The notes under the pieces are model-generated. The model was not told the origin of the DNA. It was given only the letters and a program-made list of their open reading frames with translations, and searched no databases. Below are positions 4,694 to 30,096 of a stretch of DNA of 37,428 bases, in pieces (positions within the stretch are counted from its first letter, which is position 1; each line of letters starts with the position of its first letter). Source of the stretch: a virus. Taxonomy: Duplodnaviria > Caudoviricetes. The stretch covers positions 1-37,428 of IMG/VR virus record IMGVR_UViG_3300045825_000120. One strand, written 5' to 3'. The translations under genes were made by a program, and so were the position numbers.

Positions 4694-5066
4694 TGATTAC
4701 CCTCGGGAAACTGACATCTAAATCCATCTTAGTCGGTTCAACTACCCCGCTTGCTTTTCCCCTAGCGACTTCTGCGCTTATAGCGGCGCTGTATTGCTTT
4801 TCCTTAGCTGCCATATTGCGAAGCTTTAAAAGGTCTTCTAGGTGCGTTTTAAGCGTGATTTGAGCTATTTCGGCTACTGGCTTGCGTAGTTCTGCTATCC
4901 TACCCGCAACCTCCCCGTCAGACATCAGTTCTGAAGCCCTTTTGTGTACAGTAGCTGCTTTAGTGCCTTCCCCTACATTAAATGCTGAACGGTAAGCATC
5001 TGACTGGCTTACGCCTGTGACGATAGCCTGTGCAAAAGCTTCTTGCTTAGGGGTTAGTGTACTCAT
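4671..5066 (-). CDS. terS: Terminase small subunit
   Basis: LTPKQEAFAQ...SDAYRSAF HTH-type N-terminus; directly upstream of TerL. Confidence 0.85.
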   Translation of the reverse strand: MSTLTPKQEAFAQAIVTGVSQSDAYRSAFNVGEGTKAATVHKRASELMSDGEVAGRIAELRKPVAEIAQITLKTHLEDLLKLRNMAAKEKQYSAAISAEVARGKASGVVEPTKMDLDVSFPRVINVIAGRA

Positions 5067-6331
5067 ACCACCTCACTAACTGCTTTGGTACTATCAGCCT
5101 CGACCTCTGCGAATGTTGCACCTGTAGCTGCGTGTGTTGCTTGTTTACCAGTGAACTCCTGCCAGCGGCGAACAATCACATCCACATACTTGGGGTCAAG
5201 CTCCATTAGTCTAGAGTAACGCCCTGATTTTTCACACGCAATAAGTGTAGAACCTCCACCCCCAAACAAGTCAAGCACTACGTCTTGCCCTTTTGTATTG
5301 TTTAATACCTGATACTCAATAAGCTCTACAGGCTTCATTGTTGGATGAAGCCCATTTCTTGATGGACGGTCGAACTCTAGAATAGTTGTCTGCTTACGGT
5401 CTGTTGACCATAAATGTGCTGCGCCATCCTTCCACCCATACAAACAAGGCTCATGCTTCCAGTGATAGTCTTGACGACCCATAACAAGTGTTTGTTTTTT
5501 CCAAATTAAACACTGGCGAACTGTCCAGCCAGTGTCTTTGCATGCGCCACGGAAGTTGTAACCCTCTGAATCAGCATGCCATATATAAAACACAGCACCT
5601 GACTTCATAACAGCATCTGCAGCCACAAAAGCATCCATCAGAAATTGACGGAAATTGTCGTCACTCATACTGTCGTTTTGTATGGTTAGCGCGTCTTTTG
5701 TCTTTCCAGTGTATGCAACGTTATAAGGCGGGTCAGTAACCAATTGGTCAACCAACCCTCCATCCATCAGCGTTTCAACCGAATCAATACTCGTCGAATC
5801 ACCACACATTAACCTATGCTTACCAAGCAGCCAAACGTCACCAATCTTGCTTATTGGGTCAGGCCGTACATCTGGCACAGCGTCCTCGTCGGTCAATCCT
5901 TCGGGAATAACATCTGGCGACATTGCTTCTATCTCATCCAGTGTGAAGCCTGTCAACTCCAAATCAAAGCCAGCATCTTTCAGGTCGGCAAACTCTAATT
6001 TTAGTAATTCACTATCCCACCCTGCATTCAGTGCTAGTTTGTTATCAGCTATCACATAGGCTCGTTTTTGCGTCTCTGTGAGGTAATCTAGCATGATGCA
6101 TGGCACAGACTCAAGTTTCAATTTACGCGCTGCAAGCACCCTACCATGACCTGCAATAATGCCACCTTCAGCATCTATCAATATAGGGTTAGTAAATCCA
6201 AACTCTTTAATGCTTGCTGCAATTTGCGCCACTTGAGCATCATCATGGGTTCGACTATTTTTAACATAAGGGATTAAATCCTCTATTGCTAAATATTCGA
6301 TAGTTGATTCTTGTTTACTTGTTAGGCTCAT
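5063..6331 (-). CDS. ParB/Srx-domain fused N6-adenine/N4-cytosine DNA methyltransferase (beta class)
   Basis: N-term SIKEFGFTNPILID..IIAGHGR..IADNKL; TDPPY catalytic motif before HPTMKP and DLFGGGGST SAM motif. Confidence 0.92.
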   Translation of the reverse strand: MSLTSKQESTIEYLAIEDLIPYVKNSRTHDDAQVAQIAASIKEFGFTNPILIDAEGGIIAGHGRVLAARKLKLESVPCIMLDYLTETQKRAYVIADNKLALNAGWDSELLKLEFADLKDAGFDLELTGFTLDEIEAMSPDVIPEGLTDEDAVPDVRPDPISKIGDVWLLGKHRLMCGDSTSIDSVETLMDGGLVDQLVTDPPYNVAYTGKTKDALTIQNDSMSDDNFRQFLMDAFVAADAVMKSGAVFYIWHADSEGYNFRGACKDTGWTVRQCLIWKKQTLVMGRQDYHWKHEPCLYGWKDGAAHLWSTDRKQTTILEFDRPSRNGLHPTMKPVELIEYQVLNNTKGQDVVLDLFGGGGSTLIACEKSGRYSRLMELDPKYVDVIVRRWQEFTGKQATHAATGATFAEVEADSTKAVSEVV

Positions 6332-9032: not shown

Positions 9033-9361
9033 CTGTGTGTCCTATCTATTTGACGGTTGTTTGCGCTTTCAGTTCTCCAAATCTCTATCTTAGCTTCTGC
9101 CGCTGTTAACTGCCACTTTAGCGTCTCTTCCGACTCTACAGCAACCCGTAAACCGCTTAGCAATGCTATGTAATCAGGGTGTGCGTAAGCGTATATCTCT
9201 TTTGCAGCCGATGTCTTTTCGTCGCTTTCAGCCATCAATAGGGCTTTTTTTGACTTGCGGAACTGTTCAAGGTAAATCCGTTCGCTTTTGGCTTTTGCGT
9301 ACTTAGGCGCATTATCACGAATGAACTCAGCCGCTTTGGTTGGTAGTGGAATATCACTCAT
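9029..9361 (-). CDS. Helical phage protein (possible recombination mediator)
   Basis: 110 aa; YAKAKSERIYLEQFRKS...AYAHPDY...IEIWRT; next to ninG. Confidence 0.6.
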   Translation of the reverse strand: MSDIPLPTKAAEFIRDNAPKYAKAKSERIYLEQFRKSKKALLMAESDEKTSAAKEIYAYAHPDYIALLSGLRVAVESEETLKWQLTAAEAKIEIWRTESANNRQIDRTHR

Positions 9362-9536
9362 TTTTCGTTTCTAGGCTTTTTAGGCGCAATACTTCCGCTA
9401 GTACCAACTCTTTTAGGTTTTTCAGTCCGTGAGGGTCTAAACGCTGGAAGTCTTGTATCGCCCAGTTTGCGTAAGTCTTGTCCAGTTTTGCTGTTTGAAT
9501 TATCGAGTTCACAAACTTTGCTTGGTATGGGGTCAT
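9354..9536 (-). CDS. Hypothetical protein
   Basis: 60 aa; more protein-like than the overlapping 9358..9540 frame. Confidence 0.5.
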   Translation of the reverse strand: MTPYQAKFVNSIIQTAKLDKTYANWAIQDFQRLDPHGLKNLKELVLAEVLRLKSLETKNE

Positions 9537-9539
9537 TCA

Positions 9540-9779
9540 TTATTCGTTCCAGTATCGTTTTTTATATTCTGCAAGCATTGCATCAGCGTAATCAAAAGAA
9601 CTTTCTGCCGTCAATTTGCAAAACCCATCCCAATCGTCCCGAAGCATTGCGTCTTGCTCATAATCAAGTTTTACACTCAATATACCCATCAACGCATTTC
9701 CAGCAAACTGCCTTAACGCCTCCAATTCACCATGTTTTTTATAATTTTTTATCATTTCTTCACTATTTGATTGACTCAT
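9540..9779 (-). CDS. Hypothetical phage protein
   Basis: RQFAGNALMG...SFDYADAMLAE pattern; GGAG RBS. Confidence 0.7.
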   Translation of the reverse strand: MSQSNSEEMIKNYKKHGELEALRQFAGNALMGILSVKLDYEQDAMLRDDWDGFCKLTAESSFDYADAMLAEYKKRYWNE

Positions 9780-9802: not shown

Positions 9803-9845
9803 ATTTTGCCTATTATTTTATGAATGTATATTAGGGTTTACCCTA
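9803..9845 (-). promoter_or_regulatory. TAGGG-N4-CCCTA site + 23 bp + CAAAAT (-10)
   Basis: Palindrome 9832-9845; -10 hexamer at 9808-9803. Confidence 0.7.
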
Positions 9846-10545
9846 GATTCCCTATTAAAGTTTTAAATGCTTTTGCTGCAACTTCCGGGTCTTGACCATT
9901 GCCGATAGCTTTAAGTCTGTGTGACCCAAAGGCCACCCCATTAAGTGTTCTGTCCAAGCCGGGTTTATCTTTCCCCCTGCGTGTGTGGCAAGTGATGGTG
10001 TTTTCCGGGTATATTCTGCCGGGTATGCCCCCTCCTTTGCATTGTGTGCTGTAGGGGTAGGCAAGTATGAATAACCTCTCTCGTACATGCTCACCTCCGA
10101 CTGAGGCAGACGAAAACACTCCCCATCTACAGTCATACCCCATCGAGGCAAGGTCACAGATAACTTGGTCAAGCCCTCGAACAATAAGGGCTGGACTGTT
10201 TTCAATGAATGCGAATTTCGGCAGTATTTCCCAAATAATTCTCTTGAATTCTTTCCATAATCCTGATTTATTTCCGTTAATTCCAGCCCCTTTCCCTGCT
10301 GTGCTAATGTCTTGACATGGAAAGCCTCCAGCCACAACGTCAACAACTCCACACCAAGGCTTACCGTCAAAGGTTCGCACGTCATCCCAAATCGGGAAAA
10401 GCGGGAAACATCCATCGTTTTGTCGTGCAACAAGCACGGCCTGTGCGTATGGTTCAAATTCAACGGCGCAGACTGTTCTGTGTCCAAGCAATTGCCCTCC
10501 GAGAATGCCTCCACCAGCGCCCGCGAATAAATGAAGCTCATTCAT
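9838..10545 (-). CDS. C5-cytosine DNA methyltransferase, catalytic (alpha-like) chain
   Basis: Motif I LFAGAGG, IV GFPCQD, VI ENS, VIII RER, X AIGNG; motif IX not evident. Confidence 0.92.
   Translation of the reverse strand: MNELHLFAGAGGGILGGQLLGHRTVCAVEFEPYAQAVLVARQNDGCFPLFPIWDDVRTFDGKPWCGVVDVVAGGFPCQDISTAGKGAGINGNKSGLWKEFKRIIWEILPKFAFIENSPALIVRGLDQVICDLASMGYDCRWGVFSSASVGGEHVRERLFILAYPYSTQCKGGGIPGRIYPENTITCHTRRGKDKPGLDRTLNGVAFGSHRLKAIGNGQDPEVAAKAFKTLIGNLG
9855..10541 (-). CDS. Alternative-frame partner (beta-like) chain of the C5 methyltransferase
   Basis: 228 stop-free codons nested in another frame; LPTPTA and INPAWTEHLMGWP (motif-IX-like). Confidence 0.7.
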   Translation of the reverse strand: MSFIYSRALVEAFSEGNCLDTEQSAPLNLNHTHRPCLLHDKTMDVSRFSRFGMTCEPLTVSLGVELLTLWLEAFHVKTLAQQGKGLELTEINQDYGKNSRELFGKYCRNSHSLKTVQPLLFEGLTKLSVTLPRWGMTVDGECFRLPQSEVSMYERGYSYLPTPTAHNAKEGAYPAEYTRKTPSLATHAGGKINPAWTEHLMGWPLGHTDLKLSAMVKTRKLQQKHLKL

Positions 10546-10574
10546 TTCCTACCTTTTTATGTTTCATGCTTTAA

Positions 10575-19204: not shown

Positions 19205-19717
19205 ATGAGCAAAGAAATTTTAACACATGAATATCTAAAATCAATACTGCATTACAGCATCATTACAGGTCAGTTTTGCTACTTACGGTCAACTGCACAA
19301 TGCGTAAAAATTGGCGCTGTAGCTGGAACTTTATCTACTAACGGCTATAACTATATAAAAATAAACGGGACTCGCTATTCTGCACATCGTCTAGCATGGT
19401 TTTGGGTAACTGGCGAATGGCCTGCAAATCAGATTGACCACACAAATGGGGTTAGAGATGCTAATTGGTGGCTTAATATGCGAGAAGCTACTTGCTCGCA
19501 GAATTGCTGTAACACCAGAAAACATATTGATAATACCAGCGGCTATAAAGGGGTTTTCTGGGAGGAAAGGCGTCAAAGGTGGCGGGCAAGCATCATGCTA
19601 AATAGGAAATCTAAACATCTTGGTTATTATGCGACGCCTGAGCTAGCCTATGCTGCGCGAATTAAAGCTGAAAAATCTATGCACGGAGATTTTTCGCGCG
19701 CTGTAATAAATCAATGA
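19205..19717 (+). CDS. HNH-AP2 homing endonuclease 1
   Basis: AHRLAW...IDHTNGVRDAN...NMRE..SQN plus NTSGYKGV..WRASI..HLGYY AP2 domain; antisense to the lysis operon. Confidence 0.9.
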   Translation: MSKEILTHEYLKSILHYSIITGQFCYLRSTAQCVKIGAVAGTLSTNGYNYIKINGTRYSAHRLAWFWVTGEWPANQIDHTNGVRDANWWLNMREATCSQNCCNTRKHIDNTSGYKGVFWEERRQRWRASIMLNRKSKHLGYYATPELAYAARIKAEKSMHGDFSRAVINQ

Positions 19718-20345
19718 TGATTTTTACCCATTTGGTAAAAGGCGTTTCAGTCAATGTTGGAGGTGTTACAGCTTCAACGGGCTTGGCTTCAAACTTGGAA
19801 AACGCCGCCGCTAGTTTTACATCGTAATTGTTAGAGGCAAAACCCGCCCCGTTGTAGCCCTTAGCAAACGCCGCCCAATCGTGATGTCTTAGCGAAGCAC
19901 CTAGCCCCGTTTTTTGAACGAATGATACAAACGCCATTAAATGCTCGCGTTCGTCTTTATACATAGCCGTGACAAATTCACCGATTGTTCCATGCCCTGC
20001 TAAGACGTGATTAAATCCCATGATTTGAAACTTACCCCAACTTGCGGACATCATCGCTGCTTCACGGTCAAGTTCCATAGCACGCTTAAGCCTAGTTTGT
20101 TCGGCTTGCCATGTTTTACCGTAATAGGTTTTCGTCCATGCGGGAAAACACAAATCAGGATGTGAGCCGCTAAATTTGCCGTTAGTGTATTTGAAAAACT
20201 TATGCCCTTCAAATAGTGTAACGGGCGTGCTATCAGGGTTAAACCCGCCATTTAATGACTCCACCTCAGATACAGCCTTGATAGCTGCGACATCGCAGTT
20301 CAGTGCTTCGGCTGCATTTTGAAAGTCTTGCTCTATGAGTTTCAT
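19677..20345 (-). CDS. Endolysin, N-acetylmuramidase (DUF3380-like)
   Basis: AIKAVSEVES, LFEGHKF, SASWGKFQIMGFNH, FAKGYNG; start MKLIEQ after AGGGA RBS. Confidence 0.9.
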   Translation of the reverse strand: MKLIEQDFQNAAEALNCDVAAIKAVSEVESLNGGFNPDSTPVTLFEGHKFFKYTNGKFSGSHPDLCFPAWTKTYYGKTWQAEQTRLKRAMELDREAAMMSASWGKFQIMGFNHVLAGHGTIGEFVTAMYKDEREHLMAFVSFVQKTGLGASLRHHDWAAFAKGYNGAGFASNNYDVKLAAAFSKFEAKPVEAVTPPTLTETPFTKWVKIIIDLLQRAKNLRA

Positions 20346-20359
20346 AAATTCCCTATTTA

Positions 20360-20440
20360 TGATAAAATATACGCAGTTAGAAGGTGTTGCAAGCACCCCT
20401 AACCACTTCTACAAATCGCATTACCTGAAGGATTAGCGAC
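20360..20440 (+). promoter_or_regulatory. HNH-2 promoter (TG-a-TAAAAT), TGCAA-apex hairpin and RBS leader
   Basis: Extended -10 at 20360-20368; stem-loop 20376-20403; same AAGGATTAGCGAC leader. Confidence 0.55.
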
Positions 20441-28466: not shown

Positions 28467-28766
28467 TTACTCCTTATCGTCTCTATCTTGATGGATACAA
28501 AACCATGCTGAATCTTCCAGCGCAGTGATTTGATGTTCTGTATGTTTTTCAACAATAATACAGTCACCAGCATCGTATACTCTCGAACTTTTAGGTGTAT
28601 CAACTCTAACCGAGCCGTAACCTAAAATTGATAAGTGTGAATAATCATGTATATGCTTGGTGATTTTATCACCTTTATTTAAAACATGCCGTTTTGCAGC
28701 TATGTTGTCAGCAAAAAAAAACTCAACTTGAAAGTATTCTTCTATAACTTGCTTGTCTGTAATCAT
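28467..28766 (-). CDS. RmlC-like cupin protein
   Basis: HIHDYSHLSILGYG...AGDCIIVEKHTEHQI. Confidence 0.75.
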   Translation of the reverse strand: MITDKQVIEEYFQVEFFFADNIAAKRHVLNKGDKITKHIHDYSHLSILGYGSVRVDTPKSSRVYDAGDCIIVEKHTEHQITALEDSAWFCIHQDRDDKE

Positions 28767-29830
28767 GGTAGTGTTTGTCCGTTGCGTTCAATTATAGATA
28801 GAAGCCCCTCATTGCCAGGGAATACGACGAAGTTAGAACTTCCAGCACCAGCACCGCGAGAGCCGCCGTCTAGGTAGCGAATTCCGGGAATGCCTTGTTT
28901 TTCTAAAAATGAGCTTGCTAATTCAGGTTTTCCTTGTGTAACAGCGGTATTCCTTTCAAGCGCTCTTAATATATCTTGACCTGTAGCGCCTTGGAAATTT
29001 GCCCCATATCCTGTTTTTAGTGATTGAAGTGCATCATATCCATTGTCATCAATCAAACTTCCAAGTGTTTTTTGAACATCTGGATGCTGCCCACTCAAAG
29101 GCTTATCCCAATCCAGCATCTTTGCAATGTGTTCGTCGGGTAGGTCTACTTTGTAGATTTGTGCTTGGTCTATGATTCTTTGAAGCTTTGCTTCTTCTGC
29201 AGGTATGCTTTTTAATGCGTACTCGTCACCAGCCGCTGCTTTTCTTTTTAAAGACTCTATAAGAGTATTTCTAGAATCAATCCCATCTTGCACCGAACCA
29301 TACTTAGCTCTCGGCATCATAGAGCTTGTATCTAGTCTAACAGGGCCACCATTTATATCTGTTAAGTTTTTTGCATAACTACCAGCCACTTCAGGCGATT
29401 CTGCCAAATACAAGCCATGCCCATAAGCCTGCGCACCTTCACCCGTTCCAATCTTAGAAGCGTCGAACTTGTCAAACTTATGCGGTGAACCATGCCACAC
29501 AACCGCACCTGTTTGCGGATTTAGCGTTCTAGGCGCTGCCATGTTTTCAGCACCTTGTAGCAAACCTTTAGCTATTTGTGCGGCTTTTGCCGCTGCCAGT
29601 ATTGGGGCTAATCCACCAACTGTTTCACCTAGTAAGCCAGCAAACTTGTTCTCAACATCTTTAGTTAGCCCTTTTTGCTTCATCCAGTCAGAGCCACCCA
29701 TAGGCGCGTCACCAACGGGAACACCAGCTTTTCTAAGCCCCCATGAAATCAAATCAACAGGTGCGCTCACATTAGAAGCCGCGCTGTTGCTCATACTTTG
29801 GATAAAATCTAATAATGCATTTTGTGCCAT
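28763..29830 (-). CDS. Protein with ART-PolyVal-like (ADP-ribosyltransferase-fold) domain
   Basis: VWHGSPHKFDKFD..KIGTGEGAQAYGHGLYLAES...GIPGIRYLD...NFVVF; likely start MAQNALL. Confidence 0.7.
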   Translation of the reverse strand: MAQNALLDFIQSMSNSAASNVSAPVDLISWGLRKAGVPVGDAPMGGSDWMKQKGLTKDVENKFAGLLGETVGGLAPILAAAKAAQIAKGLLQGAENMAAPRTLNPQTGAVVWHGSPHKFDKFDASKIGTGEGAQAYGHGLYLAESPEVAGSYAKNLTDINGGPVRLDTSSMMPRAKYGSVQDGIDSRNTLIESLKRKAAAGDEYALKSIPAEEAKLQRIIDQAQIYKVDLPDEHIAKMLDWDKPLSGQHPDVQKTLGSLIDDNGYDALQSLKTGYGANFQGATGQDILRALERNTAVTQGKPELASSFLEKQGIPGIRYLDGGSRGAGAGSSNFVVFPGNEGLLSIIERNGQTLP

Positions 29831-29832
29831 AT

Positions 29833-30096
29833 CTACCCTAGTAAATTCCACGCGCTCGAATGATAGCCATAGTACCCCTTACTTGCACCAAGTACCCCAG
29901 CCGCTGCGAACCTAATCATGCCGTCTCTAGGCTTAGATGGTGCGACTGTAATCATCTCTAAAAATCCGTCAGCATTGTTGTTCAAAGCTGTTTCAATGCC
30001 ATTTAATTCTGTAGCTAAAAATACAACCATAGCAGCGAAGTCAGTAGGTATTAAACCTACCGTGTATCGTTTTGTTGCTCCTGCAGTATTACGCAT
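29833..30096 (-). CDS. Small tail-associated protein
   Basis: 87 aa; PSKPRDGMIRFA...GYYGY..W; follows the nozzle gene. Confidence 0.6.
   Translation of the reverse strand: MRNTAGATKRYTVGLIPTDFAAMVVFLATELNGIETALNNNADGFLEMITVAPSKPRDGMIRFAAAGVLGASKGYYGYHSSAWNLLG

Follow-up and report, generated by a model that had tools for sequence, protein, structure and literature searches.

The closest described system to the locus considered here is M.EcoHK31I (E. coli; YGGCCR), in which, according to the accessible text of two papers, activity requires a beta chain that is read from a different frame within alpha and has IX as its only motif (PMC2836561, PMC3404938). In the same portions of text, beta loses affinity when 41-50 N-terminal residues are removed (PMC2836561), and the target-recognition domain, called 'predicted', is assigned to alpha (PMC3404938). 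A second two-chain enzyme, M.AquI (CYCGRG), is described there as holding motifs I-VIII apart from the distal variable region and motif IX (PMC3404938), and the available part of a further paper locates the recognition domain after motif VIII and before motif IX (PMC5944983). The phage family presented below goes unmentioned in the accessible portions of PMC4472890, PMC2884959, PMC9957025, PMC11855218, PMC3711429 and PMC5944983, and no paper on the phage spread of this layout or on its cassettes was found by a search that left out most subscription papers, REBASE notes and bioRxiv supplements.

A copy of HK31I was sought with a primer from the supplement of PMC2836561, which matched 80 of 5426 E. 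coli genomes. The E. coli locus L187 encodes a 309-aa alpha and a 176-aa beta with ends that agree with the printed HK31I primers, and adjoins a NotI-family endonuclease; it is taken here as HK31I or a near-identical allele. A plasmid match (H166), a 379-codon methylase beside an endonuclease, was considered for the same role and set aside.

The window, the whole 37.4-kb stretch of DNA analysed, is a phage contig with an SU10-type portal and capsid, a terminase, DNA ejection proteins, Erf and NinG. On its minus strand a gene in a phage nin-type region, with a Ren-like ORF on one side and NinG on the other, is open in two frames, alpha and beta.

9838..10545, minus strand: alpha ORF, 235 aa, comprising the C5-methyltransferase catalytic domain (motifs I-VIII), a linker and motif X (ORF list, Pfam, phrog_363, structure model)
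9855..10541, minus strand: beta ORF, 228 aa, in the +1 frame and entirely within alpha; likely the second subunit (ORF, phrog_1008, conservation, complex model)
10547..10555, minus strand: AAGGTAGGA, two Shine-Dalgarno-like words, putative in function (sequence)
10413..10415, minus strand: Met43 of beta, a possible alternative start (first ATGs of relatives)
10510..10527, minus strand: motif I of alpha (FAGAGG, residues 7-12; sequence, alignment)
10312..10326, minus strand: motif IV of alpha (GFPCQ, 74-78) with catalytic Cys77; G74-C77 invariant in 53 of 53 aligned
10195..10203, minus strand: motif VI of alpha (ENS, 115-117); E115 and N116 invariant in the alignment
10069..10083, minus strand: motif VIII of alpha (RERLF, 155-159); R157 invariant in the alignment
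9919..10044, minus strand: linker of alpha (168-209), poorly conserved and predicted to be disordered (conservation, profile alignment, model)
9892..9918, minus strand: motif X of alpha (RLKAIGNGQ, 210-218; alignment, profile alignment)

The beta ATG lies 4 nt downstream of the alpha ATG, in ATGAATGA, so that the frames are one base out of step; AAGGT stands 5 nt ahead of the alpha ATG and AGGA 5 nt ahead of the beta ATG, both within AAGGTAGGA. The original prediction, which gave no strand, had proposed two overlapping frames, the second starting 4 nt downstream, open for 228 codons and covering nearly the whole gene. Both frames are indeed present, beta at 9855-10541 within alpha at 9838-10545. 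It had also supposed that gene callers would drop the second frame, and here the picture is mixed: the record of the window contig lists alpha alone, and a single gene is annotated over the match in all three annotated phage records examined, but 1923 of 2048 candidates in the protein collection are beta homologues that have been called elsewhere. These are unnamed or 'hypothetical' among the 120 listed, and PHROG 1008, labelled 'DNA methyltransferase', matches beta. None of seven nearby ORFs scanned in PADLOC gave an endonuclease match, and by its neighbourhood the gene is an orphan methylase without an adjoining cognate endonuclease.

Several other features of the window were recorded. A second orphan methylase, a ParB-N domain fused to an N6/N4 methyltransferase (phrog_498), is found beside the small terminase (5063-6331, minus strand). 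Amid the virion genes, a 362-aa ORF (28763-29851, minus strand) has a weak ART-PolyVal match (E 5.5e-6, below the cut-off) at residues 117-164. Two 60-codon ORFs in different frames (9354-9536 and 9358-9540, minus strand, together spanning 9354-9540) overlap almost completely, with starts 4 nt apart, and an HNH-AP2 endonuclease gene (19205-19717, plus strand) overlaps, on the opposite strand, the end of a muramidase endolysin gene (19677-20396).

Alpha carries an intact set of catalytic motifs. Pfam PF00145 spans its residues 3-170 with 102.5 bits (cut-off 22), and phrog_363 also matches. Its FAGAGG, which we take to be the SAM-binding motif I, is joined by motifs IV (PC), VI (EN, reading ENS rather than ENV), VIII (RxR) and X on a SAM-dependent fold, all features of C5 methyltransferases. 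Motifs VIII and X are only ~50 residues apart. The alpha model (pLDDT 80, falling below 50 at 168-178 and 183-215 in the linker) matches M.HaeIII and M.HhaI over 168 columns only, those of the large domain, with an rmsd of ~2 A. A target-recognition region and motif IX are absent from the alpha chain, the tail of which aligns at motifs VIII and X alone. The motifs and the tail alignment thus confirm the earlier description of a 235-aa frame with motifs I, IV, VI, VIII and X, a near-empty recognition region and no motif IX. The linker itself reads as a by-product of the cassette and motif IX encoded by beta, to which three parts can be assigned.

10122..10154, minus strand: beta 130-140 (TLPRWGMTVDG), a conserved strand predicted to run antiparallel to alpha 139-143 (conservation, complex model, HK31I profile alignment)
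9969..10064, minus strand: beta 160-191, a single 32-aa PTP cassette, candidate target-recognition module (profile alignment, relatives)
9912..9968, minus strand: beta 192-210, a block resembling motif IX (INPAWTEHLMGWPLGHTDL), with predicted packing against motif X of alpha (profile alignments, model)

Beta gave no usable match against Pfam, NCBIfam, PADLOC or PDB sequences. A profile of 56 beta tails, however, aligns with 20 enzymes that have an in-frame motif IX (E 5e-5, probability 67%), placing PTPtA on the 'TL.a' block and NP..Ew.MgwP on motif IX. The end of the second frame, from LPTPTA onward, had been likened to motif IX; this is borne out for INPAWTEHLMGWP (beta 192-204, followed by 24 more residues), whereas LPTPTA (beta 160-165) instead starts the PTP cassette. 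'TL motif' is the name used for the target-recognition word of these enzymes, and the match of the beta cassette to it is weak. Beta thus probably carries more than motif IX, namely a target-recognition-like cassette that is missing from HK31I beta.

The length of the second frame is not fortuitous. When alpha residues were kept and phage codon usage applied, none of 20,000 shuffles reached 228 open +1 codons (mean longest 57), and when the gene's own codons were shuffled one of 20,000 did so. Stops in the +1 frame are possible at 34 sites given the alpha residue pairs; 13.7 are expected (shuffle mean) and none is found in the 228 codons. Among 20 further genes of the phage, the +1 frame stays open for 113 codons at most. 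Both shuffle nulls therefore rule out chance openness. Assembly error is likewise ruled out by matching letters in contigs from two public runs, one of which may be the source: the gene is identical in run X1, possibly the origin of the window, and near-identical contig pieces from run X2 are without differences over the part of the gene that they cover (~9924-10004 being uncovered).

Relatives have the second frame open too. Searching with alpha alone yielded 46 viral loci, of which 37 remained once six duplicates and three incomplete cores (L034 and the frameshifted L026 and L039) had been removed. Each of the 37 keeps the +1 frame free of stops over a minimum of 77 codons ahead of the motif VIII end, whereas stops abound in the +2 frame; the interruption of frame 2 in homologues, named with the original prediction as refuting it, was thus not seen. 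Broken relatives do occur, two with a frameshift in the core (L026, L039) and two others (L031, L032). Among the best 80 of 543 loci from a genome scan by motif IV, which covered 3 of 64 parts of the collection, 56 of the 76 counted have a long open +1 frame, and the remaining 20, which score lower, have it open for at most 53 codons. The hosts of the genome loci include Pseudomonadota, Actinomycetota, Bacillota, Bacteroidota, Planctomycetota, Verrucomicrobiota and other phyla, and cultured phages matching both alpha and beta include Salmonella S9-5, Vibrio, Ralstonia and Pseudomonas phages and mycobacteriophage Che9d. In a census of layouts that combined the alpha-picked viral loci, the genome loci, 56 beta-found loci and the window, with 24 of 183 rows dropped (14 duplicates, nine incomplete, one with a stop), 106 loci share the window layout of motif IX in beta and motif X in alpha. 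On this sequence evidence the layout is that of a large family and not a rarity.

The reading we favour is that two conserved frames give rise to two separately initiated chains of one orphan C5 methyltransferase, in which alpha would catalyse and beta would supply the small DNA-recognising domain. Translation would begin at each of the two ATGs, with ribosomes recruited by the tandem Shine-Dalgarno-like site. Alpha would fold as a SAM-binding large domain from which a floppy linker leads to motif X, and beta would dock through its strand on alpha 139-143 and through motif IX on motif X, bringing the PTP cassette to the position that the target-recognition domain occupies in enzymes of one chain. 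The likely role of such an enzyme would be to protect the phage DNA from host restriction by methylating it. We consider it very likely that the two chains form one enzyme and, if they do, judge it just as probable, by position and selection, that recognition lies in the beta cassette; the full reading needs both and is accordingly somewhat less secure, though still likely. In the window genome GATC occurs once in 37 kb (~107 expected), and GGCC, CCGG, CCWGG and GGWCC are also depleted. This strong avoidance of palindromes fits restriction pressure; the k-mers avoided do not name the methylation target.

Selection switches from alpha to beta after motif VIII. Across 56 non-redundant genes, beta-chosen loci included, conservation is higher in alpha over codons 1-165 but in beta over 166-210, and identity at alpha four-fold sites is 0.34-0.57 over the former and 0.76-0.87 over the latter. 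As this set includes loci chosen by beta, the test was repeated on alpha-chosen loci with cassettes paired by DNA identity. The 26 pairs obtained among 125 cassettes, which share members and are not independent, show 259 silent and 99 replacing codon changes in beta as against 30 and 340 in alpha, with 296 of 436 differences at beta third positions. The core is reversed (alpha 2332 silent and 1576 replacing, beta 531 and 3436; 110 pairs, again not independent). Beta conservation beyond what alpha forces peaks at ~110-140 and 160-225, and the motif IX block is the most conserved part of the chain. The excess is small over beta 11-100 (0.02-0.11, with a null that keeps shared ancestry in) and the +4 start is present in just 25 of 56 relatives, so the true start of beta may be Met43; in 11 of the 56 non-redundant relatives the first beta ATG lies at +127 to +142 nt.

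These patterns bear on the best-surviving alternative, that the enzyme works exactly as published for HK31I, with beta structural (strand and motif IX), recognition in the alpha linker and the cassettes serving as stabilising or neutral repeats. The recognition domain of HK31I was, in the accessible text, published as lying on alpha; the alpha linker is open in all 106 loci of the window layout, as the definition of that class entails, and part of it (187-217) is in contact with beta in the complex model. An open linker is expected regardless, since alpha needs it to reach motif X. Changes in the linker are, however, nearly all replacing (30 silent against 340), it is predicted to be disordered and it aligns to nothing in one-chain enzymes. 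Moreover, alpha stops directly after motif VIII in three loci (L129, L130, L144). We regard this account as unlikely.

Structure prediction of the two chains together, which the original prediction had proposed, supports the binding of alpha to beta. The complex scores 0.87, 0.84 and 0.87 over the runs against 0.00 for the best of three controls, and so passes a mark that 116 of 157 solved pairs and 2 of 215 mismatched ones attain; these counts hold roughly here, since alignments of our own were supplied. The runs share at least 72% of contacts, with partner pLDDT of 60-62. In the model, beta 133-137 lies antiparallel to alpha 139-143 (alpha 141 with beta 135, 139 with 137), and this orientation means that the contact is not a same-codon diagonal. 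Beta 194-208 packs on alpha 210-220, 15 and 37; this IX-X contact may have been carried over by the predictor from solved enzymes of one chain, since the halves of split genes tend to pass. Cassette residues 170-186 fall outside the confident interface of the model, which was built without DNA. Modelled alone, beta folds poorly (pLDDT 54, pTM 0.24).

A slightly less likely alternative still is that alpha is active alone with low specificity, beta being an accessory or regulatory binder or having its own function. It draws on two genome loci (L154, L179) that encode a complete one-chain alpha yet retain a short nested +1 frame, so that supplying motif IX is not what the nested gene does in every case. 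On the other side, the window alpha is without the entire small domain, HK31I alpha is inactive without beta in the published text accessible, and the best conserved part of beta is precisely its motif IX block.

It is improbable that a single chain is made by two programmed frameshifts, from alpha I-VIII by +1 into the cassette and motif IX and then back to X, even though the blocks follow one another along the DNA in the order of a one-chain enzyme. Beta, in all 106 loci with the window layout, has 102-309 open codons ahead of the motif VIII end, more than 100 codons before any useful shift point, with conserved residues there. It has its own ATG and Shine-Dalgarno-like word, the patterns tried gave no homopolymer run of six or more and two weak CTTTG matches only, and HK31I makes two chains. 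Finally, an origin of the second frame by chance, from composition or through faulty assembly can practically be dismissed, for although conservation of the beta N-terminus is partly forced by alpha, the silent-site patterns in beta refute it, as do the shuffle nulls, the open +1 frame of relatives and the matching runs.

The boundary between the two chains slides within the family. Five beta contents are found: the nested strand only; strand and IX, as in HK31I; strand and cassettes; strand, cassettes and IX, as in the 106 loci of the window layout; and strand, cassettes, IX and X. The nested frame of L154 and L179, of ~150-180 codons and with the docking strand, has an SL.(D/E)(I/V)LE..P..Y.LS block that is also present in HK31I beta. 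In eight loci of an actinobacterial and viral group (L135-L137, L147, L158, L042, L044, L045) beta holds the strand and cassettes, with IX in alpha, and in one of them, L136, cassettes occur in both frames. Beta holds both IX and X in nine loci scattered over the tree (eight changes for nine rows), and in four of these (L012, L017, L020, L061) the layout arises from an HNH insertion. Because the tree is a quick version with a midpoint root and weak basal support, we do not infer from it the order in which the layouts arose. When long one-chain proteins with a fused beta C-terminus were sought, 3 of 14 candidates qualified; none of them has a recorded Pfam domain, and they count as weak evidence.

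HNH endonuclease ORFs (PF01844, E 7e-5 and 7e-4) are inserted at motif IX, in the third frame, in L061 (2357-2854) and L017 (2262-2621), and also in L012, L019, L020 and L024. In such loci alpha ends before or at the insertion and beta reads through into motif X. The arrangement resembles, by its description in the accessible part of the paper, the out-of-frame HNH 'ShiLan' insertion (PMC11855218).

The number of PTP cassettes, counted with our own pattern, ranges from none to seven per locus, 14 of 106 loci being without any by that pattern. Alpha length tracks it, with a median of 243 aa for one cassette, 282 for two and 310 for three (rho 0.72, n=106). There are 108 types at 60% identity among 202 cassettes, and cores that are 95-98% identical hold different sets (L005, L010, L011, L012, L016, L017, L018). 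The type found in the window occurs 46 times, whether first, in the middle or last in its set, a count inflated by use of the window cassette peptide as the query. In intact loci the PTP cassettes are mainly in the +1 frame. We tentatively propose that these cassettes (~34 aa) are plug-in recognition modules of an overprinted specificity subunit, arrays of one to seven being multispecific and the cassettes being traded between near-identical cores while the alpha frame serves as an open spacer, and that the sliding chain boundary records the migration of domains between frames. That arrays would give additive multispecificity is, similarly, conceivable but somewhat doubtful.

A layout treated as the curiosity of one enzyme thus persists in phage and prophage genes of many phyla, with same-strand overlaps of at least 0.7 kb. 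As annotation keeps one chain, predicting, cloning or recoding 'short' orphan methylases from the annotated frame loses the second. If the cassettes do set specificity, they would form a natural library of small swappable DNA-recognition modules, and the window copy (one cassette, 0.7 kb) is about the simplest family member in which cassette specificity could be tested.

Compared with known systems, the window gene is closest to HK31I, a parallel that had been drawn from the outset and is upheld by the frame and register of L187 and by the beta profile alignment. In both, alpha encloses the whole of beta, which is read in the +1 frame and in the same register, and alpha carries motifs I-VIII and X with motif IX on beta, the last at modest E-values. 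Two parts of HK31I beta, the S.RW..GM...G..W strand and motif IX, are matched by the beta family profile (E 1.4e-4, probability 53%), the alpha cores are 33% identical over 169 columns, and direct beta-beta BLAST is not significant (E 0.84). With frame and register shared by a distant relative, the architecture is one already published. Window beta 130-140 is the counterpart of HK31I beta ~36-46, the strand alignment spanning HK31I residues ~33-48. The HK31I region whose deletion weakens association therefore appears to be the counterpart of the strand predicted to dock on alpha.

The two also differ. HK31I beta starts at codon 104 of the 309 of alpha, and the window beta starts at the second of 235 codons. 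Motif IX of HK31I beta is a canonical RRMLPSEYERLQGFP; this chain is without a PTP cassette (no match to the cassette profile), and the variable region of its alpha is longer than that of the window and includes a TL word. HK31I adjoins an endonuclease, whereas the window gene is an orphan. Nor is HK31I-type recognition on alpha matched here, where selection and a TL-like match, both read from sequence, point to beta. HK31I beta itself has a PTL word before motif IX, and the published assignment of its recognition domain may for that reason need testing. The window enzyme would thus work like a distantly related HK31I, differing in its recognition site and in the absence of an endonuclease.

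Like M.AquI, it splits the enzyme so that the catalytic motifs I-VIII are on one chain and motif IX is on the other together with the distal variable region, but the small chain of M.AquI also carries motif X, which in the window is on alpha. With the one-chain M.HhaI and M.HaeIII it has the large-domain fold in common; its alpha is without the small domain, which appears to be encoded in the other frame. The multispecific C5 methyltransferases of Bacillus phages are one-chain enzymes with tandem exchangeable target-recognition domains, and relatives of the window gene similarly carry tandem exchangeable modules of 24-55 aa between motifs VIII and IX, the window having one. What is known, therefore, is the two-frame architecture, from one E. 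coli enzyme; what differs here, as far as the sequences indicate, is the near-total overlap, the lack of a cognate endonuclease and the presence of the cassette in beta.
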